Shown: positions 13,736 to 45,211 of the stretch, in pieces | Layout: the number at the start of each line of letters is the position of its first letter | How positions within the stretch are numbered: the stretch's first letter is position 1 | NCBI GenBank assembly: GCA_963662465.1 | Contig: OY759599.1 | Coordinates: 1,152,001 to 1,216,000, forward strand | Direction of reading: 5' to 3' | Length of the DNA stretch: 64,000 nt | Origin: Desulfatiglandales bacterium | GTDB taxonomy: Bacteria > Desulfobacterota > DSM-4660 > Desulfatiglandales > Desulfatiglandaceae | The notes under the pieces: model-generated | What the model saw: the letters and a program-made list of their open reading frames with translations, nothing else | Databases searched by the model: none | What the model was told of the DNA's origin: nothing | Translations under genes and position numbers: made by a program

Positions 13736-14950
13736 ATGGTTCGAAGCTATGATATCGGTTTGAAACAAGCCCTTTCCTTAACCCTTGGGGCCGTGAAAAC
13801 CCTGCCTGCGGTGTCGATGCCCGTGCATGAGGTATGTGACCGGGTGGCGGCTGAGGATCTAACGGCGGTGGTGGATTGCCCCTCGGCTACGTCTTCTATG
13901 CGGGACGGGTATGCGGTGGTTTCCTCGGATATTGCCAAGGCTTCCCCCGGAAATGGTATTCCACTCAGGATTTCCGGGACCCTGGCCGCGGGAGATGCCG
14001 CAAAAAAAACCGTTCAATCCGGGTATGCCATCAATGTACTGACGGGCGCCGTGATTCCAAAAGGGGCCGATGCCGTGGTGTCCGTGGAGTTTACGGAAAT
14101 GCAGGGTGAAAGGGTCATTTGTCATCGGGATGCGCCGCCGGGATGCAATCTTCTTTCCCGTGGCAGCGATGTTTCGGTTGGAGGATCCATCGTGAGTCGG
14201 GGCCAGATGTTGACGCCTGCGTTGACCGGGCTGCTGGCAGCTGGCGGCGTACACCATGTCAAGGTATTCCCTTCCCCCCGGGTGGCGGTTGCGGCCACGG
14301 GTGACGAGGTGATCGCGCCGGGGCATCCCCTCAGGTCCGGCCAGTTATATGCCAGCAATGTGGTGACCCTCTATTCGTGGCTGCGTCATTTCGGCATGCC
14401 GGGAGAAACCGTCGTTGCTCGGGATGACCCGGATGAACTTGAAAAGACTTTCAGCCGCTTGCTTTCGAAAAATGATGCCCTTTTGACCAGCGGCGGCGCC
14501 TGGAAAAGCGAGCGGGATCTCACCACCAAAGTTCTGGATAAAATGGGCTGGGAAATGTTTTTCCACCGTGTCCGCATCGGTCCCGGAAAGGCCGTGGCCT
14601 TGGGGATTCTGGATGGCAAACCGATCTTTTGCCTTCCCGGCGGTCCCCCGTCCAATGAGATGGCATTTTTGCAGATTGCGCTCCCCGGACTCCTTCGGAT
14701 GGCGGGAAAACCAACGGCGCCGTTTCCACTTAAAAAAGTACGGCTGGCGGAGGAGGTGAGTGGGGATGTCACATGGACCCAGTTTTTTCAGGCAACCCTT
14801 GAAAAAAGGGGAGGGGAGTGGTGGGCCATTCCCCATCGCATGAAAAGTCGGATTCAGTCCCAGGCCCGGGCCCAGGTCCTGATCAAGATTCCGGAAGGGG
14901 TGGCGTGTCTGGCGGCCGGAAACATCATCGAGGTGCAGGTGTTTTTTTGA
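13736..14950 (+). CDS. moeA: Molybdopterin molybdotransferase
   Basis: SMRDGYAV, TGAVIPKGADAV, TGDEV, TSGG, LPGGP. Confidence 0.92.
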   Translation: MVRSYDIGLKQALSLTLGAVKTLPAVSMPVHEVCDRVAAEDLTAVVDCPSATSSMRDGYAVVSSDIAKASPGNGIPLRISGTLAAGDAAKKTVQSGYAINVLTGAVIPKGADAVVSVEFTEMQGERVICHRDAPPGCNLLSRGSDVSVGGSIVSRGQMLTPALTGLLAAGGVHHVKVFPSPRVAVAATGDEVIAPGHPLRSGQLYASNVVTLYSWLRHFGMPGETVVARDDPDELEKTFSRLLSKNDALLTSGGAWKSERDLTTKVLDKMGWEMFFHRVRIGPGKAVALGILDGKPIFCLPGGPPSNEMAFLQIALPGLLRMAGKPTAPFPLKKVRLAEEVSGDVTWTQFFQATLEKRGGEWWAIPHRMKSRIQSQARAQVLIKIPEGVACLAAGNIIEVQVFF

Positions 14951-14954
14951 GGAT
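14771..14954 (+). repeat. moeA 3' end, copy 1 of direct repeat
   Basis: Matches 31846..32026 (e.g. GGGGAGGGGAGTGGTGGGCCAT, CTGATCAAGATTCCGGAAGGGG). Confidence 0.9.
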
Positions 14955-15905
14955 GACAAAACACTATGAACAGTGGGCATTCTTCATTTCTCGGTTTACA
15001 CTTTTGTTCCCATGTGAGTAAGCAGGTAATACAAACCCCATAAATCCTTTGCCATCGCCCACGGGCTGGAATGAGAGATGCAATATGGACTTGATCAAAC
15101 ATGTCAGCATTGAAGGTTTCAAATCCATCAAGACCCTTGATCGGCTGGAACTGGGTGCGATCAATGTGATGATAGGCCCCAATGGATCCGGCAAATCCAA
15201 TTTCATCAGCTTTTTCCAGTTGCTCAATTATGCCATGACGGAATCGCTGCAGGATTACATCAAAAAAAGAGGATTTGCCGAAAGCTTTTTGTGTCTGGGC
15301 TCAAAAACCACTTCTCGGATACGGGGCGAATTGGAGTTCGGCACGGAGAATGGGACAAACCGGTATCGGTTTACACTTGTTGCCGCTGCCGGGGACATTC
15401 TGATATTTTCGGAAGAAAGCATTTTCTTTCAAGCCAATGGCCATCCACGGCTTATCGAAAACACCCTGGATCCGGGAGGCAGGGAAAGCGCCTTGCCGAA
15501 GGCAACAATCCCGCCACTCAATCATGCTGAAATGGCCACGGCCCGAGCCATCTCGAACCAGCTTTCGAGAAAGCGCGTTTACCAATTCCACGACACCTCC
15601 ATGGAATCGCGACTTAGAAAGGCAACCTTTCTGGATGACAATCGCTATCTCCGGTCCGACGGCGGAAACCTCCCCGCTGTCCTTTTTCGATTGCAGCAAG
15701 ACAGGTCCGATTATTACCGAAGAATCATCAGAGTTCCTGGTAAATGACCTTTACGCAACTTAACTGTTTGAAATCGTTATACTGGAGCTTCTCATAATTT
15801 CGTGTGCATTTCAGATTTTAGTGCAGCGTAACTAGCTGAAAATATTAGGTGGGGCAAAATATTTTTTTTATTGACAAATGAAAACTGAAAAATTATCTTC
15901 AGACC

Positions 15906-18173
15906 ATGATTGTCAAAACAGAAAAAATTAGCGACCTATCCATATGGACCGAGCGGGATTGGAAGGAAAAAATCACTGTTACGGTTTATCATGAGTATCG
16001 TCCTGTCGTCAGTTTCGATCCTGGGAAGATAAATGATAGGAGACTCGCTGCCGTACAACTTGTCGAGCTTGGTTATTGTAAAAACCGGGTTGCCGGTAAA
16101 ATCTGTGGGTTTCACCGCAATACGGTTGGCAAACTGCTTCGCACCAAAAGACTTTTAGGTGTTGAGGCCATATTTGAGGACAACCGTGGTCCCAAGGCTC
16201 CCTGGAAATATATTGGCAGCATTCGCAAAACCATCAAAAAACTTATCCGCGAGAATCCTGACTGGACTGACCAGCAGATTGCAAATGCCGCGGAAAAGCA
16301 AACTGAAACGACTATTTCGAGAAGTGCTGTAGCTCGTATCAGAACCGCGGACCAAGATGCAGAAACTGAAAAGCCTACAAAGCATGACTTGGAGCAACTG
16401 GCTAAAATTGCGGATAGTATTGATTTGAAGCAACACGACGAGCGACAGCTTTCTTTCAACTTTGAGGCTGATTCTGAGTTCAAAAAGAAGGTAGATGAAT
16501 TTGCTGATGAGGATACACCCAAGCCACAAACCGATACAGATAAAGTATTCCTGGATTATCTTCAACAGGGACAACGCAATGTCTTTGCCGGCATGCTTCT
16601 TCACCATCTGTTTTTAGATCATATCAACTTCCCAAATGCCTTTGATTTGCCTTCTTATTCCAATAATATGTATGATAATTATGAAGTGATGGAAACTGTC
16701 CTTTTCGGGTTGAACATCGGGTTGCCATCTATCGAATCCCATAAGCTGGTCAACAGTAGGGACATGGGGCTTTTGCTGGGACGAACCAGTTCCCCCGATG
16801 AGACCACTATTCGGTTGCGTTTAAAACAGATGGCCGAGTTCAAGCCCTCAGAGAGCCTGATAGATTATTTCGCAAACCTGTTTCTATCGTTGGGGTTCAT
16901 CAACCCAGAGGTGTTTTTTATCGATGGGCACTTCCTTCCCTATTATGGACTGAAAGTTCTATCCAAAGGCTACCATACCGTGAGACGAATTGTCATGAAA
17001 GGAAACGAGATTTATGTTGTCAGCGACCTTGACGGGAAGCCTTTCTTTTCAATTACCGAAGGGTGTGATATCGATTTCAGGCCGATCATCATAAGAGCGG
17101 CCGACAAGATAATCAGCCTGGGTGTCGACCGCCCCATTGTGGTTTTTGATCGCGGTGGTTATGGTGTTCACTTTTTCAGTCAATTATCGAAAAGGGCTGA
17201 CTTTATTACGTGGGCCAGGTATGTGAAAAAAGATGAATTGAAAGACTTGGAATATACGAGCTGCTTGATGTTTAATGGGAAAAGATATCTCATTGCCGAG
17301 AAAACAAAACTGATTCGTGAATCGATTTCTACAGCTGCCAAAGAAGGCCGAACAGAGGCAACTTCGACAGAAGTACGTATGGTTGTTTTCAAGGAATTGG
17401 ACAAGGATAGACCTGTGGCAATATATACCAGCAATCATCAAAAGCCTGCTCCTGATATTGCCGCATATATGCTTTCACGATGGGGAGAGTCTGAAAACTT
17501 TTTCAAAGAGATGATGTCCCTGTACAACTTCAATTATCATCCCGGTTATGATCTTAAAGAACTTGAAGAACAGCCTCTTGTAGATAATCCTGAGGTAAAA
17601 ACAATCAAAAAAACGATCAAGGGAATTAAACAAAAGATGGGGCAATTGGCGCTTGCAAAACAACAAACAGAGTCCAAAATAGAAGCACGAAAAGATCTTC
17701 GTCTTAAAAAAAAGCTAAACACGCTCCAGGAAGAGATAGAGAAATACGACAAAGAGCTTGACGGTTTTCAGGCAGCCTTAAAAGAAATGCCTGACAAAGT
17801 ATCGATAATTGAAGTGCTGAAAGGCAGACCAATGAACAAGGCAGATCTGGAGAAAAAGAAGCTCTACGACCTGATACAAATGATTGCCTTTCACTCACGC
17901 GAGCATCTGGTTGGCCTGTTCCGTTCATGTTATGATGATCCGCGGGATGTGAAACAGATCCTGACAAAGGTCACAAAACTCCCTGGTTATGTGAAATTAG
18001 TCGGGAAAACACTTGTTGTGCTTTTAGATTGGATAGAGGACAAAAAGCATCGGAAGGCAGCAACAAGATTTTGCCATCTGATAAACACTATGTCGCCCAA
18101 ATTGAGAGGTCGCATGGAGTTCGACCTTTATTTTCGCATCTCCTCAATCCCTCAAGTGGGTTATTGCTGTTAA
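15906..18173 (+). CDS. tnp: Large DDE transposase (755 aa) with N-terminal HTH
   Basis: FFIDGH, VVFDRGG, RWGESENFFK motifs; coiled-coil insertion. Confidence 0.85.
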   Translation: MIVKTEKISDLSIWTERDWKEKITVTVYHEYRPVVSFDPGKINDRRLAAVQLVELGYCKNRVAGKICGFHRNTVGKLLRTKRLLGVEAIFEDNRGPKAPWKYIGSIRKTIKKLIRENPDWTDQQIANAAEKQTETTISRSAVARIRTADQDAETEKPTKHDLEQLAKIADSIDLKQHDERQLSFNFEADSEFKKKVDEFADEDTPKPQTDTDKVFLDYLQQGQRNVFAGMLLHHLFLDHINFPNAFDLPSYSNNMYDNYEVMETVLFGLNIGLPSIESHKLVNSRDMGLLLGRTSSPDETTIRLRLKQMAEFKPSESLIDYFANLFLSLGFINPEVFFIDGHFLPYYGLKVLSKGYHTVRRIVMKGNEIYVVSDLDGKPFFSITEGCDIDFRPIIIRAADKIISLGVDRPIVVFDRGGYGVHFFSQLSKRADFITWARYVKKDELKDLEYTSCLMFNGKRYLIAEKTKLIRESISTAAKEGRTEATSTEVRMVVFKELDKDRPVAIYTSNHQKPAPDIAAYMLSRWGESENFFKEMMSLYNFNYHPGYDLKELEEQPLVDNPEVKTIKKTIKGIKQKMGQLALAKQQTESKIEARKDLRLKKKLNTLQEEIEKYDKELDGFQAALKEMPDKVSIIEVLKGRPMNKADLEKKKLYDLIQMIAFHSREHLVGLFRSCYDDPRDVKQILTKVTKLPGYVKLVGKTLVVLLDWIEDKKHRKAATRFCHLINTMSPKLRGRMEFDLYFRISSIPQVGYCC

Positions 18174-18227
18174 AGCCTTGCTCATCGTTTCAGCCATCCT
18201 ACGCAGGGTATCGTGTTTCGACCACAT

Positions 18228-18253
18228 GTAGGGGCGAAAAATCTTTCGCCCTA
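18228..18253. repeat. GTAG-type REP-like palindrome inside IS right end
   Basis: GTAGGGGCGAAAAATCTTTCGCCCTA; GGGCGAAA/TTTCGCCC stem after GTAG. Confidence 0.55.
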
Positions 18254-18807
18254 ATGGCCGAAACAATGATCAAGGCCGCTGTTGAACTAAATGCACAATT
18301 TGAATTGAGAAAAAACGTCATTTACTATGATGTCTGAATCATATTGCAGTTGCGACGGATGATTCCGGGGTTTCGGGCTTTTGTGCTGGAACCGGAAAAC
18401 GACCACATTTTGCTTCGATGGCGTGGCCATGATCCGGAGTATATTTTCGGTTCCCATCAGCTTTCTGACGGCAGCCTTCGCTTGATGGCATTAACGACCC
18501 TGTTCCTCCAGCCTCCGGAAGACCTACAGGATATGATCATCGTGGATGAACCTGAACTCGGTCTTCACCCCCAGGCGGAAGCCTTGCTGGCGGGTTTGAT
18601 TCGGTCGGCTTCTTCCAGGTGTCAAGTTCTACTGGCCACACAATCGGCCAGTTTTGTGGACAATTTCGAACCTGAAGATGTCATCGTTTGCGAAATGGAG
18701 GATACGGAAAGCAAGTTCCAAAGGCCGATGCGGAGTGAATTGGCTGGATGGTTGGAGGATTATTCCCTTGGCGAGGTCTGGCGGAAGAATGTCATGGGAG
18801 GCCAGCC

Positions 18808-19230
18808 ATGAGCCGTCAGGTTATCTTTTACGTGGAAGGCTACACGGAACTTGAGTTCGTCAACGAGATAATCGGTCCTCACCTGGGTGACCTTGGGATC
18901 ATCTGGCACAAGCCTATACTGGTGTCCAACAGTGTGCGCAAAGACCGAACAGCACGAGGCGGAGTCCGTAAGTACGACCCTATCCGAAAAGACCTGCGGC
19001 GACTATTGGCCCAATACCATGGGGCGGATTTCACCTTTACAACGATTCTGGATTATTATGGATTGCCCGAAGATTTCCCTTTGAGGAACGTTCCGCTTCC
19101 CGGCGTGGTCACGCCTTTGGACAAGGTTCAGGCCATTGAAAACGCTTGGAAAAATGATATTAACAGGACCTGGACCTCGCTGAAACCACGATATTGCAGT
19201 ACACTTTCCAGAACTGGAAAAATGGGTTAG
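18808..19230 (+). pseudogene. DUF4276-like (TOPRIM-like) protein, C-terminally truncated
   Basis: FYVEGYTE, GGV, TTILDYYGLP motifs; start overlaps ATPase stop; family-like sequence ends after AWKNDIN (~19163). Confidence 0.7.
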
Positions 19231-19534
19231 AGAAGCGGCCCCCGGAGGGATTACGGGACGAACACCAACGCCATATTTATAAGGGTAAGTTTGCGTTGGA
19301 TGGAACTGGATGAGACGGGGGATTTAAGCACAAGTGTTGCAATTTCAGTTAACACTAAAGTGAAAACGGGAGAAGTCCTTCACGATCTTCTCAAAATAGA
19401 CCAGCAGATGAAAGGCCGTCTTGTAAATGGGAAGATGTTCATATTGTACCAAAAAACGGCCCTGGAAAAAATGTCGCGAACAGGCCCCCCCCTGTGCCCC
19501 CTCGTTTAAATAATCAAAAGATCAAATGACCAAA

Positions 19535-20458
19535 TCACCCATCGTTTCGGGAACGTACTGCAAAAGCCCTGCTGCTGAAGGAGTAGTCACGGATGCCGGA
19601 GGACCTGCGGCCGACGCTGAAGCCGAAGATCCTCGCCTTCGATGAACCTTCAGTTTCTCCCGACCAAACCCACCAGCCTGTGGTCTTCAAGAAAGACGCC
19701 ATATTACGGTCGCCTGTGCCTTTCTTGTAAAGACCGTTCAGTTCATCTATGGTGGGCATTCTCCATCCACCACCGTCAAGATTAAGGCTTTGGACCCAGG
19801 ACCTGGCTTCATTCCAGTTTGTATTTTCATCAGGACCCGCCTTCCACTCAAGGCCCGTGTTTGTGTCTTTTATGATCCCCTTGGAGTAGAGTACGTATTG
19901 TCCATGCCGTTCAATTACATTATTTGAAGGTGGTGCTGGTTTAGGGTAAGAAGGTTTCTGAGGAACGCTGGCCACCTCAACCCATTGGTTCTTGGATTCC
20001 TTTCGGGAACTTACCGCAAAAGCCCTTCCAGAGTAAGAGAAACCACTGATGCCCCAAGCCCTGCGGCCGCTGTAGAAGGAGAAGATCCTCGCCTTCGACG
20101 AACCTTCAGCTTTTCCTGACCAAACCCACCAGCCTGTGGTTTTCAAGAGAGACGTCATATTACGGTCGCCTGTGCCTTTCTTGTAAAGACCGCTTAGCTC
20201 ATCTATGGTGGGCATCCTCCATCCACCACCGTCAAGATTAAGGTTTTGGACCCAGGACCTGGCTTCATTCCAGGGTGTGTCCTTGTCCGGTCCCGAGACC
20301 CACTTAAGGCCTGTACTGGTGTCCTTGACAATCCCATTGTCATAGACCACATACACTCCGTCCCGACCAATTTCATTGGAAGCGGCAAAGCAAAGGCATC
20401 CTCCCAACAGAAATACTAAAAGAGCGATGCTAAGTGCAATTTTTTTAATGGTAATCAT
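19535..20458 (-). CDS. Secreted protein with two tandem Lcl/DUF1566 (C-type lectin fold) domains
   Basis: Signal peptide; two copies of DT.TGL.W...WNEA...WRMPTIDEL...WVWS...RAFAV. Confidence 0.85.
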   Translation of the reverse strand: MITIKKIALSIALLVFLLGGCLCFAASNEIGRDGVYVVYDNGIVKDTSTGLKWVSGPDKDTPWNEARSWVQNLNLDGGGWRMPTIDELSGLYKKGTGDRNMTSLLKTTGWWVWSGKAEGSSKARIFSFYSGRRAWGISGFSYSGRAFAVSSRKESKNQWVEVASVPQKPSYPKPAPPSNNVIERHGQYVLYSKGIIKDTNTGLEWKAGPDENTNWNEARSWVQSLNLDGGGWRMPTIDELNGLYKKGTGDRNMASFLKTTGWWVWSGETEGSSKARIFGFSVGRRSSGIRDYSFSSRAFAVRSRNDG

Positions 20459-20605: not shown

Positions 20606-23600
20606 CTAATCTTTCCTTAAGCGTACAGCAAAAACTCTTTCGACCGTAACACTTATATTTCTATGCGAAACTAACCCTCCATTCTCAAGATCAAAAACCC
20701 ACACATTCGCTGAATCCGCTCCTTCGTAAGACCACACATACAAACCTGTGGTTTTAAAAATCGCTGGTAGAGGATTCCATTTATTACAAATTGTTTTTAG
20801 CTCATTGTTGGTGGGTATTCTCCACAGACTACGAGTTGAATGTCCATTTTTCTTGGCCAGCCATTGCTTTGCTTCAGAAAATGAGGTTCCTTCATCAGGC
20901 CCAACAATCCACTCAAGTCTGGTACGTGTATCCCAGACTGCCCCGTTGTTAAAAACAAACCTGCGGCGTGGTTTTTCCTCCGTTGCATCCTTGACAGTTT
21001 TCGATACCGGGGGTGCGGCATCCTTTTTAGTGATCGAAACGTCTGAATTTTTGAGCGGATTTGCTATAAGATGAATTTTAAGGGTTTCCTTTTTCCCTGC
21101 TTCCAGGTTTGCCCATGTCTTTTTTGTTTTGCAACCCTCCCGTGAAACCTCGACATGGTAACGTCCGGGTTTAAGGAGTATCCCCTGGTGAAATTCTTGT
21201 TTTATGTTAAGGAGTCGAACATGCGCATCTGCTGGTTTAGCTTCTACAAATAACTGGCTGATGACCCATTCAAGATGAAATTGTACCGTTTCACTTTTTT
21301 CTGCTGTGAGGGTTACCCAGCCTTGCTTTGTTTTACAACCGTCCCGTGAAACCTCGACATGGTAATGTCCGGGTTTAAGGAACATCCCCTGGTGAAATTC
21401 CTTCTCAGTATTGAGGAGTCGCACAGTTGCATCTTTTGGCTCAATTTCCACAAATAACCGGCTGACAATCCATTCAAGATGGACCTGCAATTCCTGGTCT
21501 TTTTCTGCGATGAGGGTTACCCAACCTTGCTTTGTTTTATAACCGTCATGTGAAACCTCAACATGGTAATTTCCGGGTTTAAGGACCATCCCCTGATGAA
21601 ATTCCTTCTCAGTATTGAGGAGTCGCACAAGTGAATCTTTCGGTTCAGTTTTTACGAAGAGTTTGCTTTCTCCTATGATTCTCGGTTTAAGGTGTTTTCT
21701 CTGTGCATTGGATTGGGCGCCCTTATTTCCTGGAATACCGTCCTCGGAGGTGTTATCGGTTTCGCTTGCCATTCTAGCCGGATTGAAATTTTTACTTTGT
21801 GGTTTTGCATTCTCAGAAATCAAGCCAAGCACCAGAAAAAAAGAAAACATACCTAGCGCAACTCCTGCGGCGATCAACACCTTGGCTCGTCTTTTCTTTC
21901 TCACGGCATTGGAAACAGGGGCTTTTCTAAGACGAAATTCAAGTTCTGTGGGCGTCCCCGAATCGACCCCAACCTCCTGGGTTGCAGTTTTGAACCCGTC
22001 AAGGGTCAGCCCCAGTTTATATCTCCCGACCGGCAACTCTATACTCGCATCTGTTTTTTCTCCCGTATCCCGACCGTCTATCCATATTGAAGCACCATTC
22101 GGCAAACTGGCAATAGTCAATTCAGCGAGCGGTTCAGGGGACGCCATGTCCCTGACAAGCCGAAATCCCCAACTGTGATCTTTATATTCAGGCCAGTTGC
22201 ACCAGCGACAAGTTGTTCGGCATTTCATCGCATCGCTCTTCCAACTCCCGCCTCGTAGCACCCGCTGTGTGCCCATAGACGGGGCCGGGGGATTATCGGC
22301 CGCAACTGATGGATAATCCGCGAACCAGTCCTGGCACCACTCCCAAACATTACCGGACATATCATGCAGGCCCAGCCCATTGGGGGCCTTCTCCCCTACC
22401 GAATGCGTGGTATTTCCACTGTTTTGGTCATACCAGGCAACGGCGTCAATATGGTCTCCGCCGGCATACGTCTCTTTTTCACCCCCGCTTCTCGCGGCAT
22501 ATTCCCATTCCGCTTCGGTAGGAAGCCGAAATTGATATTTTCTGTCATTTTCCGCTGTCAGTTTTTCTATGAAATCCTGTGCATTGTCCCATGAGACCAT
22601 TTCCACGGGATAGTTGTCTCCCCTTCCACACTTGGAAGGATTTGTTCCCATAAGACTTTTCCACTGACCGCAGGTTACAGGATATTTCCCAATATAAAAG
22701 CCATCAAGGGCAACTTCATGCGCCTTTTCTTCCGCTTCATCCTCATGTTCAATTGCCCTCCCCATCATGAATTTCCCGGCATGGACGTAGACGAACGCTA
22801 TTCCGGTAACAGGGTCCATAAATACCGGTTCGGGCGGCTCATGAGACGGACCTTGCTCCCCTTTTTCAAGATCTTCCGGGGCGTTGACATCGCCGGGGCC
22901 GTCTTTCTGATCCCTCTGACGGTCACAGGCCTCCACATACTCCAGAAACTCCCCGCACCCATTGAATCGGTCATCCGGAGACTTTTCGAGGGCTTTCATG
23001 ACAATCCCCGTCAGTTCATCGGAAATATCGGGATTGATCGCCTTCATGTCGGGCGGTGCTTCCCGGACATGTTTGTCTTTCACCGCATAATCAGTTTCGC
23101 CGTCAAAAGGCGTCTGCCCCGTCAGCATCTCAAACAACACGACGCCGATGGAATAGACATCGCTTCGATGGTCGACCCCCTTGGGATTGACCACCTGTTC
23201 CGGGCTAACATACCAGGCAGTGCCGATATCCACGCCTGTTTTGGTCAGGCGATGATTATCGCCCGCACGGAGCGCGATGCCGAAATCCATGATTTTGGCT
23301 CTACCGGACTTGTCAATCAAAATATTTGAGGGCTTGATATCTCGATGGATGATTCCTCGGCTGTGGGCAAAATTCACACCGGCCAGGATATCCTTCAGAA
23401 TCGGCAGGGCTTTGTTTTCACTGAGTTTACCCTCATCTTCAATCATGTCCTCAAGGGAACAGCCATCCACATATTCCATCACAAGGTAGTACAGGCCGTT
23501 GTGTTCAAAAAAATCATTCACCTGTACAATGTTTGGATGGTCCAGTCCGGCCTGGGCCATGGCTTCTTTCTCAAAGCGTTCTTTGAACTGAGGACTGTTT

Positions 23601-23740
23601 GAAAGTTCAGAACTCAAACATTTCACGGCAAATTGTTTTCCCAGAATCACATGCTCGGCAAGAAAAACGACCCCCATGCCTCCTTCTCCGATCTCAGAGA
23701 GAATATTGAGGTTTCCGATCTGGGTTCCTATGATGTCCAT
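20606..23740 (-). CDS. Ser/Thr kinase + FGE-sulfatase domain + PEGA + TM + 3 PEGA-like repeats + Lcl domain
   Basis: GEGGMG, HRDIKPSN, DFG; RLPTEAEWEYAAR and DMSGNVWEW; three ~68-aa repeats; WRIPTNNEL...VFAVR. Confidence 0.92.
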   Translation of the reverse strand: MDIIGTQIGNLNILSEIGEGGMGVVFLAEHVILGKQFAVKCLSSELSNSPQFKERFEKEAMAQAGLDHPNIVQVNDFFEHNGLYYLVMEYVDGCSLEDMIEDEGKLSENKALPILKDILAGVNFAHSRGIIHRDIKPSNILIDKSGRAKIMDFGIALRAGDNHRLTKTGVDIGTAWYVSPEQVVNPKGVDHRSDVYSIGVVLFEMLTGQTPFDGETDYAVKDKHVREAPPDMKAINPDISDELTGIVMKALEKSPDDRFNGCGEFLEYVEACDRQRDQKDGPGDVNAPEDLEKGEQGPSHEPPEPVFMDPVTGIAFVYVHAGKFMMGRAIEHEDEAEEKAHEVALDGFYIGKYPVTCGQWKSLMGTNPSKCGRGDNYPVEMVSWDNAQDFIEKLTAENDRKYQFRLPTEAEWEYAARSGGEKETYAGGDHIDAVAWYDQNSGNTTHSVGEKAPNGLGLHDMSGNVWEWCQDWFADYPSVAADNPPAPSMGTQRVLRGGSWKSDAMKCRTTCRWCNWPEYKDHSWGFRLVRDMASPEPLAELTIASLPNGASIWIDGRDTGEKTDASIELPVGRYKLGLTLDGFKTATQEVGVDSGTPTELEFRLRKAPVSNAVRKKRRAKVLIAAGVALGMFSFFLVLGLISENAKPQSKNFNPARMASETDNTSEDGIPGNKGAQSNAQRKHLKPRIIGESKLFVKTEPKDSLVRLLNTEKEFHQGMVLKPGNYHVEVSHDGYKTKQGWVTLIAEKDQELQVHLEWIVSRLFVEIEPKDATVRLLNTEKEFHQGMFLKPGHYHVEVSRDGCKTKQGWVTLTAEKSETVQFHLEWVISQLFVEAKPADAHVRLLNIKQEFHQGILLKPGRYHVEVSREGCKTKKTWANLEAGKKETLKIHLIANPLKNSDVSITKKDAAPPVSKTVKDATEEKPRRRFVFNNGAVWDTRTRLEWIVGPDEGTSFSEAKQWLAKKNGHSTRSLWRIPTNNELKTICNKWNPLPAIFKTTGLYVWSYEGADSANVWVFDLENGGLVSHRNISVTVERVFAVRLRKD

Positions 23741-31845: not shown

Positions 31846-32026
31846 ACATGATTCAATTTTTCAACAATGCTCAAAAAAAGGGGAGGGGAGTGGTGGGCCA
31901 TCCCGCACCGCATGAAAAGCAGGATTCAATCCCAGGCTCGGGCTCAGGCCCTGATCAAGATTCCGGAAGGGGAGGAATGCTTCGCGCCCGGAAATATCAT
32001 CGAGGTACAGGTGTTTTTTTAAGGAT
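31846..32026 (+). pseudogene. moeA: Displaced moeA 3' fragment (copy 2 of direct repeat)
   Basis: Encodes KRGGEWWAIPHRMKSRIQSQARAQALIKIPEGEECFAPGNIIEVQVFF*, matching the MoeA C-terminus; 5' edge degraded. Confidence 0.88.
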
Positions 32027-41622: not shown

Positions 41623-43205
41623 GGGCGACCTGCAGCCCCAGTTTTCTAAGTGACAGTGATAGTCTGTCTATGCTGTACCGCAAAATGGCATAAGGTCAAC
41701 ATTAGGATTATCTCTCCGGAGGCAAAGTTTCCGTCGTGCCCATCGAACGGGAACGCCGGAGGTAAGTGACTCACTACGCCGTAAGGCGGGTGGGAGAAGG
41801 GCTTGAGACCGATGCTCAGATCCGATTTCAGATGCCTAAGCGACGGCCGGCATTTGATTAGACCGAGGTGGCGTGGCCGTGGGACGAGGGTACCTTAAAG
41901 CCTGTAGTCCGGCCCGTTGGGGGAAAAGACGGGATCAAAGTCGAGGCATATTGCGGATAGCCTTGCTGGAAACGGTTATAAGTGATTAGGTTTGGAGAGG
42001 AGCAGAATAGAGAACTGGGGTGACCGGGTGAGATCTTGTGGAAGTCTCGCAGAATGCGAGTAGGGAACTGGGAACCTGATGCGACCATGAGAAGTCAGCG
42101 CCGTCATATTAGGCACATGGGGTCAACCTGTGCCGAAGGACGACACCGTGAAAGGTAGGTAAAGGGATATTGCGCGGGCAGGGGTACGTTCCAAGCGAAA
42201 ACGGCCCGGAACTGGCAGACAGTACCGCCGTGGTATACAGACCTATCTGGTGTAGGATGGTATCAATTGGCTAAGATTTTACACAGTGTCATAGACAAAG
42301 TTTACAACTGGGTCAACCTGGAAAAGGCATCGGCCAAGGTAATTGCCAACCGAGGCAGTGCCGGTGTTGACGGCATGGATGTGAAGGCATGGAGAGGCAA
42401 ACTTAAGGAACACCTGAGCACTTTACGGCACAGACTGATGAACGACACCTATCGGAGCAAGGCGGTCAAGCGGACTTACATTGACAAGCCTGGCAGCCGG
42501 AAGAAGCGCCCACTGGGTATTCCGGTGGTAGTGGATCGCGTGTGTCAGCAAGCTGTGCATGCGCAGCTGAGCCCTGTGTTTGAAGAATACTTCCACCCAA
42601 ACAGCTATGGTTTCCGTCCGGGGCGCAGTACACATACTGCTGCCGTCCAGGTTCAGGAGTTGAGAGGCAAAGGATATGGCTATGTGGTAGATCTTGACAT
42701 CAGAGGTTTCTTTGACCATGTGGATCATGAAATCCTGATGAAGTTGGTCGGCAAGGTGGTGAAGGATCGACGGGTCCTGGGCCTGATACGCGGCTGGCTG
42801 ACGGCTGGAGTAATGGAGGAGGGCAATATACGCTTTCAGGTCTCCGGCACACCGCAGGGTGGGGTAATCAGTCCTTTACTGAGTAACATTTACCTCACAG
42901 TGCTGGATAATGCGTTGGCGGCAAAAGGACATCCATTTGTCCGATATGCCGATGACGTGGTAATTTTCTGCCACGGGCGCGAGCAAGCAGACCAAATACT
43001 TGTCTATGTACGCCAGGTACTCAGCGAGCTCAAGCTGGAGCTTAACGATGAAAAGACCTGCGTGCGGTCATTTTCCGAAGGATTTGATTTTCTTGGATTC
43101 CATTTCAATACGCGTGGGATGAAGGTCGGGACCAAATCGCTCAAAGGCCTGTACCGTAAGGTGCGGGAGGTAACCCGACGGCAACAAGGTGATCTACCTG
43201 TGGAA
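41623..43205 (+). mobile_element. Group II intron, 3'-truncated
   Basis: GGGCGAC 5'-end-like sequence (variant of GTGCG), ~640 nt non-coding leader with GAAGTCAGC...GAAGGACG segment, then RT ORF; no D5/D6 after the IS. Confidence 0.75.
42267..43205 (+). pseudogene. ltrA: Group II intron reverse transcriptase/maturase, truncated by IS
   Basis: SAGVDG, RPLGIP, SYGFRPGR, GTPQGGVISPLLSNIYL, RYADD, FDFLGF; cut at start of the X/thumb domain. Confidence 0.9.
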
Positions 43206-45211
43206 CGCATAAGTCTAAATGTTGTGGGGTTTACTCTAACATATTGAAATTATTTCATCTGTTAAACGGTTCAGAATCAATATCCTAATCAAAGCGCATT
43301 TCGTGAGGCCAAACATTTTTTCCTGAATTCGCCTTAGCGGAAAAAAGTTAGGGACTTTTTTTGATAAGTGTGCATAATCATAGTGCAACAGTCTATGTTA
43401 AATTAGAGAGGTTGCACATGATTAATAATATTAAGAGAGCTTTGACAATGTTGGACAAAGCTCAAAACAGACTTGCAAGACAATGTTATTACGATCCAAA
43501 ACAGTATCCTGAGATTTTCTTTGAAATTGAGAAATGCATTAATGCCATCAGATCATGGATCAATGAAAGGGAGATGTTTCAATCATTGCAATATTTTTAT
43601 GTAACATTGTCTGCTCTTATTGATGAACTTGGTAGGTTAATAAGTCAATTATGGGATATTTGTAAGCCAATAAAAGGGAAAAAAAGCATTCCAAAAACAC
43701 AACGGGATCGACAGAAAATTAGAATCTTTTATTCAATTCGTTCAATGATAAGTAATATTACTAAAAAATTGAATAATGTAAAAAGTCGTGATAGTACAAT
43801 CAGTATTGCATTTGAGATAGGGATGTTAAAATCTTTTGATAAATCCATAATCGAAAATGTAAAAAAGAAAATGGAAGACCTTGTTTCTAAACGAGGAAAT
43901 CAAACATATATCTTTCCTTATAATAACACCGAAAGCTATCATGCTCTCGTAAAAGATAGTAAGAAGTTTCGCATTGAAGTATTAGATAAACTCGATAAAT
44001 ATGATCACCACACAGGCCATAATTCAACATGTTCTGGACCTAAAGAATATATTTTATCTGGTTTCCGCGGGAATCCTCGAAAAACAATAATGAATGGAGG
44101 AGAACAACAGACATTCCCAATCCGCATGATACAATGCCGGAAGTGCAAACAAAAGTTCTCTCTTGTTCCCAGCTTTCTCCCAAGGGAAAAGAATTTTGGT
44201 ATAGAGATTATTGGGCACGTATTTCGGAATATGTACCGTTTTAATGCGAGCATTCAAGGAGCCATCGAAAGCCTTAAAATTATTGGCAAAAAAAGTGTCA
44301 AAAGCAAACAGACCATCTTGAACTGGAATCGATGGGCAGGAACACTTCATCCTGCAACAATACTAACAAGAGCAGGAGTGAAAGGCTCAGGATATCTACA
44401 GGAAGATGAGGGCTTTGAAAAAGAACCAAATTTAAGAACTTATTCTGTAGTTATGGTCGATCCTGAAAATTTATTAGTATGGCACTCCGATTATGTTGAT
44501 CATGTTGATGAAGAAAACCTGTGCGGTTCATTTGAGGATTTTTTGCAAAAAATCGACTTCAAAATCCTTGGTGTAACAAAAGATAAGTGGAAAGCCTCAA
44601 CCAATGCTATCAAGACCGTATTCCATAACATTTGGGTCGGATATTGCCATCGTCATTGTTTGAAAAACTTCTACGATGCACTATCAAAATATCAAAAAGA
44701 ATCAAAATGTACCGACCAAGAAGTGGACAAGCTTTATAAAAAATTTAAGAAAGTTTTGAAAACATCCACATCTAAAGTTAACTTGGAAGTAAAGATTAAG
44801 GCATTAGATGACGATGCATTTTCTCATCCATTACTAAAAAAGAGGGTAGTAGAATTAAAAGAAAATGCCACTCATTATACCTCTCATAAAAATAGAAATG
44901 GGATAAAACAAACAACCTCCATTGTTGACAATTATTTAAAAGGAATCAAACGTAAACTAAAACAAATTGAGAGTTTTCGAGATAAGAAATGGGCAAGTCT
45001 TTTTTTTCGAGCACATGCGACTATCAGGAATTTTGTCCCATTTTTACCTGGCGCAAAAAATGCTCATAAAAGTCCCTTTGAATTAGCCAACGGCCAAACA
45101 TTTGACTTACCTTGGATTCAAGTTATGAATGTTCATAATGCATTCTTGTTTACCGAAAACGCCTTTTAATTTTGATGGGTTATACAACCCCACAACATTT
45201 AGACTTATGCG
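43206..45211 (+). mobile_element. Insertion sequence with 26-bp perfect terminal IR, family unclear
   Basis: CGCATAAGTCTAAATGTTGTGGGGTT at 43206-43231 and inverted at 45186-45211. Confidence 0.88.
43418..45169 (+). CDS. tnp: Putative transposase (RNase H-fold, CxxH motif)
   Basis: Sole long ORF between IRs; CRKC knuckle, LQEDEG, TKDKW, YCHRHC, TTSIVDNY. Confidence 0.72.
   Translation: MINNIKRALTMLDKAQNRLARQCYYDPKQYPEIFFEIEKCINAIRSWINEREMFQSLQYFYVTLSALIDELGRLISQLWDICKPIKGKKSIPKTQRDRQKIRIFYSIRSMISNITKKLNNVKSRDSTISIAFEIGMLKSFDKSIIENVKKKMEDLVSKRGNQTYIFPYNNTESYHALVKDSKKFRIEVLDKLDKYDHHTGHNSTCSGPKEYILSGFRGNPRKTIMNGGEQQTFPIRMIQCRKCKQKFSLVPSFLPREKNFGIEIIGHVFRNMYRFNASIQGAIESLKIIGKKSVKSKQTILNWNRWAGTLHPATILTRAGVKGSGYLQEDEGFEKEPNLRTYSVVMVDPENLLVWHSDYVDHVDEENLCGSFEDFLQKIDFKILGVTKDKWKASTNAIKTVFHNIWVGYCHRHCLKNFYDALSKYQKESKCTDQEVDKLYKKFKKVLKTSTSKVNLEVKIKALDDDAFSHPLLKKRVVELKENATHYTSHKNRNGIKQTTSIVDNYLKGIKRKLKQIESFRDKKWASLFFRAHATIRNFVPFLPGAKNAHKSPFELANGQTFDLPWIQVMNVHNAFLFTENAF

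Follow-up and report, generated by a model that had tools for sequence, protein, structure and literature searches.

A frozen DGR target with two variable regions and a truncated avd behind it in a Desulfatiglandales genome

The window, the whole 64,000-nt stretch of Desulfatiglandales DNA that was analysed, carries on its minus strand a target gene (19535–20458) whose 307-aa product is formed by a hydrophobic N-terminus, a putative signal peptide, and two tandem Lcl_C domains (DUF1566, PF07603; C-type-lectin fold). No sequence relative of the protein was found in the PDB, and its full-length model is poor (pLDDT 56.6, no Foldseek matches at E ≤ 0.001). The model of domain 2 (pLDDT 83.5) is a C-type-lectin fold, with structural matches to Bd2740 (Z 13.1, RMSD 2.6, 104 aligned), Legionella Lcl (Z 11.5), TvpA (Z 9.4, RMSD 3.1, 118 aligned) and Mtd (Z 8.9); TvpA and Mtd are targets of diversity-generating retroelements (DGRs). 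The gene ends a run of same-strand FHA/vWA/PP2C/M48 and Ser/Thr kinase genes, with a Ser/Thr kinase–FGE–PEGA–Lcl gene (20606–23740, minus strand) upstream, and a promoter and terminator scan stayed at chance level. Homologues of this Lcl subfamily number 1098, many of them fused to caspase-type domains (PF00656).

DGRs mutate adenines of AAC-rich templates, giving NNC codons at the C-terminus of C-type-lectin folds. The original prediction saw such a signature here, and its counts proved exact on recomputation: 18 of 20 codons end in C in the C-terminal variable region (VR; 19571–19630, minus strand) and 12 of 20 in the internal VR (20027–20086, minus strand), against a proportion of 0.31 over the whole gene (binomial p 7e-8 for 18/20 in a single 20-codon segment), and the two domains are identical at 56 of 62 residues upstream of the VR segment and at 10 of 20 within it. 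The PF07603 match and the structural matches of domain 2 place the VR at the C-terminus of the fold. Open frames of at least 250 codons that reach 18/20 NNC number eight in the 8.16-Mb genome (the target, three polyproline frames, one His-rich repeat and three others), and the Lcl domain at the end of the kinase 1 kb upstream, our negative control, lacks the signature (1/20).

A template pattern, inferred from the aligned VRs of the family and then searched in the genome collection and in metagenomes, identified one locus in the former and five in the latter. All six have avd and then a template (TR); a reverse transcriptase (RT) follows in five, the contig of L083 ending before it, and an Lcl target lies on the contig in four, with L084 holding the target's last bases only and L087 beginning at avd. 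Full target–avd–TR–RT cassettes of the target's Lcl subfamily are present at L082, L085 and L086. The last of these, on a metagenome contig, has domain, linker, flank, avd and post-RT segment in common with our locus but, unlike it, is intact, with full avd, TR and 497-aa RT, and its targets are caspase-type fusions.

Against the L084/L086 template, the C-terminal VR differs at 19 of 27 adenines and at 2 of 33 other bases (p 1.5e-7); the internal VR is more decayed (20/27 and 5/33), and all 12 VR–template pairs (two VRs against six templates) are significant for adenine bias. Part of the template was fixed by the search pattern itself, so the 14 free codons outside it were tested separately, giving 11/17 adenine against 3/25 non-adenine mismatches (p 6e-4), and the bias holds within codon positions 1–2 (18/26 against 1/14). 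The mismatches thus fall at template adenines, as had been anticipated, in comparisons with templates from other organisms; the exact parent template of the target VRs was not found. One VR codon, TCC against template TGG, holds two non-adenine changes unexplained by adenine mutagenesis, and L086's own targets show 0 and 1 non-adenine mismatches to their TR. Over 66 distinct family VRs, columns at template-Asn positions have an entropy of 3.1–3.7 bits, against less than 0.8 for Phe, Gly and terminal Arg columns, so the family has diversified, though the target allele itself has not. The 3' end common to target and TR is constant (19547–19570, minus strand, aligned to six TRs) and is presumably IMH-like in role. 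Because a cognate template family exists and the mismatches are adenine-specific, the comparisons support a real signature and a target gene that is a past DGR product.

The two VRs have residues in common at 5 of 11 variable positions (expected 1.15, p 0.003), and the differences between them lean to template adenines (14/27 against 7/33, p 0.014), a pattern that would fit a duplicate partly rewritten afterwards. At the DNA level, identity between the domains is 92% over 180 nt that stop five codons short of the VR (19646–19825 against 20102–20281) and 64% over the 90 nt before that, a step that makes gene conversion an alternative source of the shared residues; such conversion between the domains is likely over this stretch, in which orthologues carry polymorphisms common to both domains. 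The idea that the internal copy is an older variant frozen by domain duplication stays plausible: its non-adenine mismatches (5/33 against 2/33) and the 5/11 shared residues speak for it, but gene conversion offers another route and leaves the case weak, and the extra decay is too small for dating. Among the VRs of its subfamily in the genome, the C-terminal one is the freshest.

The genome (one contig, 100% complete) holds four AAC-rich templates, Lcl-type at 404243 and 3604985 and FGE-type at 1134296 and 2625062, none of them cognate. They have their own targets, some remote (591989 for TR1, 7469359 for TR3), they do not fit the window VRs, and those VRs are absent from the best matches of TR1–TR4. 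Adenine-tolerant and blastn template searches of the genome recovered paralogous VRs only (the best adenine-tolerant matches having at least 17 non-adenine mismatches per 100 nt), as did a search with the cognate (L084/L086-type) templates, of which there is no copy. Neither TR nor DGR RT lies at the target locus. The genome has 47 RT matches and two intact-looking DGR RT frames; the RT closest to the cognate one is 53% identical and has its own TR, and the DGR-type RT nearest to the target lies at 1133289, at a distance of about 37 kb, and is paired with an FGE-type TR of its own. A bAvd Pfam match at 7112935 was set aside as a four-helix-bundle ORF among unrelated genes; the same Pfam search missed the avd remnant described below. 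A TR motif search in 11 genomes of the genus gave the other Lcl TR type only, viral contigs gave 0 matches for two TR patterns and the junction pattern (with two weak partial protein matches), and plasmids gave three short RT matches only. A cognate TR with A-to-N differences only, the criterion for a remote target in the available text of Wu et al. (2018, PMC5758913), was not found elsewhere in the genome.

Six orthologous proteins (92–96% identity) vary at 6 of 40 VR columns against 40 of 267 elsewhere, and their VR changes are single substitutions of non-DGR type, one of them to Met (I to M). With no cognate template left, both VRs are, to judge from the sequences, fixed and the allele frozen.

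Behind the stop codon, where no local DGR machinery had been expected, remains of it follow on the minus strand. A post-VR G/C hairpin (19475–19504) has lost 7 nt from its loop and 3' arm, seen as a gap against L086, and the hairpin flank folds without the stem at -5.3 kcal/mol, against -11.9 in L086. An 86-nt avd 5' stump with a TTG start (19367–19452) begins 82 nt past the stop codon and retains about 29 of 122 avd codons; stump and flank match L086 at 81% over 178 nt, and the stump protein at 77% (E 1.4e-9). It is fused directly to a non-coding segment (19266–19366) which in intact L086 follows the RT (L086:6679–6777, just 3' of the RT stop; nhmmer E 2.4e-9 for a profile built from three junction copies, L086 left out). 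L086 is the only intact cassette showing this segment behind its RT, where L082 does not have it, so the internal deletion is read against one reference. The segment also recurs as a dispersed repeat: six genomes carry 10 more copies of it behind unrelated genes, which weakens its candidacy as a dedicated cassette end; five loci of the right-hand segment gave no Rfam match. As an observation on the repeat itself, copies at L116, L123–L126, L128–L132 and L134 are non-coding, about 100–350 nt long and variable at their 5' ends, without Rfam match in the four loci scanned, and three weak copies lie in the target's genome. No convincing direct repeat beyond about 4 nt was seen by eye at the junction. 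The junction and both VRs are covered, with 0 differing letters, by contigs assembled from two runs of the organism's one sample, which supports the assembly; rare variants may exist, as contigs drop them. Of 22 runs considered, the 20 with small word shares were set aside as evidence.

Searching 209 genomes of the class, most of them incomplete drafts, with the L086 avd gave 15 matches and no intact cognate cassette. Nine are 5' stumps of 30–69 codons (63–92% identity) and six are near full length but at most 56% identical, a split that is partly biased because identity is inherently higher for N-terminal pieces; a search with the other avd type gave 11 matches, of which the three at 87% identity or more are all full length. 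Stumps follow a VR of the target's subfamily in the target's own genome (G000, twice), G003, G100, G109 and G128, with a shorter one in G016, and other VR types in G102, G103 and G152; the one in G013 has no VR. Separately, the G013 stump (L094:1501–1608) ends at a palindrome that, we presume, resembles an integron attC site. The other locus of G000 (C1:483949–487521) is a second relic of the cassette type: a kinase gene with two Lcl VRs, followed by a hairpin and by 43 codons of avd that run up to a palindromic repeat.

A junction at avd nt ~86 is common to G000, G100, G109 and G103 (four genomes, three genera, two VR classes), whereas the deletions in G102 and G128 differ from it. In three of the junction stumps, 5 of 50 sites are polymorphic at codon positions 1/2 against 9 of 25 at position 3 (p 0.009), with 19 of 45 in the right flank; adding G103 gives 8/50 against 11/25. 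This low polymorphism at positions 1/2 indicates that the stumps diverged as coding avd rather than as a single long-dead fragment, a hint that the same site was cut more than once. The VRs beside these stumps retain 47 of 48 template C's, although their genes differ at 13/40 to 24/44 synonymous sites; coding-type stump divergence and retained C's would agree with separate intact cassettes having been cut independently and fairly recently. Recombination may instead have refreshed one old junction. No recombination signal was found, and a tree of hairpin and stump (11 rows, 175 columns; L083, L085, L087, G013 and G152 left out) has nine unresolved rows and so does not distinguish a single origin from multiple ones. 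Stump-bearing terminal VRs are fresher, at 2, 3, 3 and 5 non-adenine mismatches against 3–14 in 14 without one (p 0.01, kin not being independent). At the far end of decay is an eight-genome clade (G000:C1:3628718–3629305; L035, L038–L042, L075) with one old VR, near-fixed in protein and with decaying NNC codons, which is a domesticated DGR product.

The target was in our view probably the cis target of a cassette that has since lost the end of avd, the TR and the RT to a deletion. Such a DGR, of the CLec/DUF1566 class, would have had the order target–hairpin–avd–TR–RT; following established DGR biology, its RT would have misread adenines while copying the AAC-rich template, and the resulting cDNA would have replaced the ligand-binding end of the lectin domain; a domain duplication may have given the second, internal VR. 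A deletion, deduced from L086 and the observed junction, would then have joined avd nt ~86 to sequence after the RT stop, removing most of avd, the TR and the RT.

The original prediction had instead proposed a remote target in trans. As a description of the present state this is very improbable, even with the freshest VR of its subfamily and two intact-looking DGR RT frames in the genome: the complete, one-contig sequence has no cognate TR or RT, the hairpin is damaged, the orthologues are frozen with changes such as I to M, and the organism's own contigs carry no VR variant, though rare ones would be dropped. The avd stump instead points to a gene that once headed a cassette. A past version, in which a cassette elsewhere was the source of a copied 3' end, hairpin and avd start, the gene was for a time rewritten in trans and the donor was later lost, is unlikely but deserves more weight. 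Other DGRs of this genome have real remote targets (those of TR1 and TR3, above), and flanks can be copied along with targets, as the second L086 target carries a flank copy up to 8 nt before the avd start. The four junction copies also share junction-adjacent letters, and their right sides are more alike among themselves (69–80%) than to L086 (59–71%), as expected from one old junction spread by copying. Against it stand the sparse polymorphism at stump positions 1/2 relative to position 3 and the retained post-RT segment. That no DGR was ever involved, the NNC codons reflecting codon bias and ordinary positive selection on a binding loop, is hardly tenable at all. Third-position C/(C+T) is 0.56 genome-wide, and L040, from the long-frozen clade, still has 15/16 third-position C, so that NNC can persist in old frozen alleles; but the adenine-specific fit to independent templates within codon positions 1–2, the adjoining avd stump and the bare Lcl domain next door speak against this reading, which the cognate cassettes already refute.

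The target, then, is a genuine DGR target, now frozen, that still shows its deletion scar, and the recurrent junction is the part worth following. We offer as speculation, and a doubtful one, that the DGRs of this lineage are 'hit-and-run' editors, whose avd–TR–RT engine would, once a chromosomal lectin sensor has been diversified, be removed at a preferred site (avd nt ~86 joined to the post-RT segment) by a sequence-directed route that locks the selected variant. It is comparably improbable that the identical junction in four genomes, three genera and two VR classes, with stumps that diverged as coding sequence, is the scar of repeated directed excision and not of random decay. Were the shared junction to reflect directed excision, it would supply the missing off-switch that has been proposed for DGRs, and the suggestion from a study of cyanobacterial CLec paralogues that machinery is removed once a good variant has been selected (Vallota-Eastman et al. 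2020, PMC7517822, in its available portion) would become testable.

Since frozen DGR targets have been described before, the locus by itself is of modest weight. In the available text of Nimkulrat et al. (2016, PMC4891356), leftover target genes persist in Treponema denticola strains that have no core DGR; as here, the VR differs, mostly at adenines, from a TR present in other genomes only, and the genome may, as in strain SP32, hold a different, non-cognate DGR. Our case differs from those leftovers in its DUF1566/Lcl target, its two VRs and a visible loss junction (the avd stump) that recurs across genera. The CLec2/DUF1566 class, exemplified by the Legionella DGR, as far as the accessible part of Wu et al. 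(PMC5758913) describes it, similarly has PF07603, a C-terminal VR, a chromosomal location and known remote targets; the link of our target to the class is the DUF1566/Lcl_C match. Ours is a short subfamily that ends in GWWVWS...RAFAVRS and has a TR type of its own. Thiohalocapsa PB-PSB1 (Dore et al. 2024, PMC10907252, partial text) likewise has loci missing machinery, tandem VR-bearing CLec domains and a vWA/kinase/caspase context, but there several degenerate loci remain variable and matched to a TR in trans, as none does here, and no MoxR/VMAP gene is present among the 11 genes scanned around our target. The cyanobacterial CLec paralogues with remnant TR–VR homology resemble it in their kinase- and caspase-fused lectins dispersed in the genome; they belong to another phylum and lectin class, and the removal scar itself is visible here (PMC7517822, portion available). 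A literature search whose coverage excluded most subscription journals turned up no description of a deletion junction that recurs inside avd, and nothing relevant on orphan or truncated avd, or on DGR loss, excision or internal deletion.

The locus contributes three things: a family of templates cognate to a large Lcl subfamily, a scar that physically records the loss of the engine, and a series of increasing decay that runs from active VRs (0 non-adenine mismatches) through stump-bearing ones (2–5) to long-domesticated ones (up to 14). The target probably persists as an exported two-headed binding protein at the end of its kinase/FHA/phosphatase gene run, and by analogy it is likely to sense a ligand for signalling or defence, similar roles having been proposed for other DGR lectins in the accessible parts of two of these studies (PMC10907252, PMC7517822).

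The genome has further DGR loci in various states. A separate Lcl-type DGR (G000:C1:402403–410789, 591520–592131) has an avd interrupted by a stop codon, a remote target at 591989, and a 1091-aa protein whose VR lies close to the N-terminus. A DGR RT with an FGE-type TR lies at 1133289–1134440 with no local target seen; the best VR for this TR (1134296) is at 7469359, 6.3 Mb off, with 11/104 non-adenine mismatches, four of them in the last 10 nt. Two more DGRs, at 3601300–3606200 and 2625000–2626300, are broken (truncated TR; RT with stops). Within the window, a truncated reverse transcriptase beside transposase-like ORFs (42267–43247) is probably of group II intron type, and its Pfam score equals that of three other genomic copies. 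An AAA_21 ATPase gene is split by a 755-aa transposase (PF21804) at 15049–18811, and its DUF4276 partner gene (18748–19230) seems 3'-truncated near the DGR scar. A 162-nt repeat (86%) occurs at 14793–14954 and 31865–32026, 17 kb apart, and is presumably the end of a moeA-like gene.
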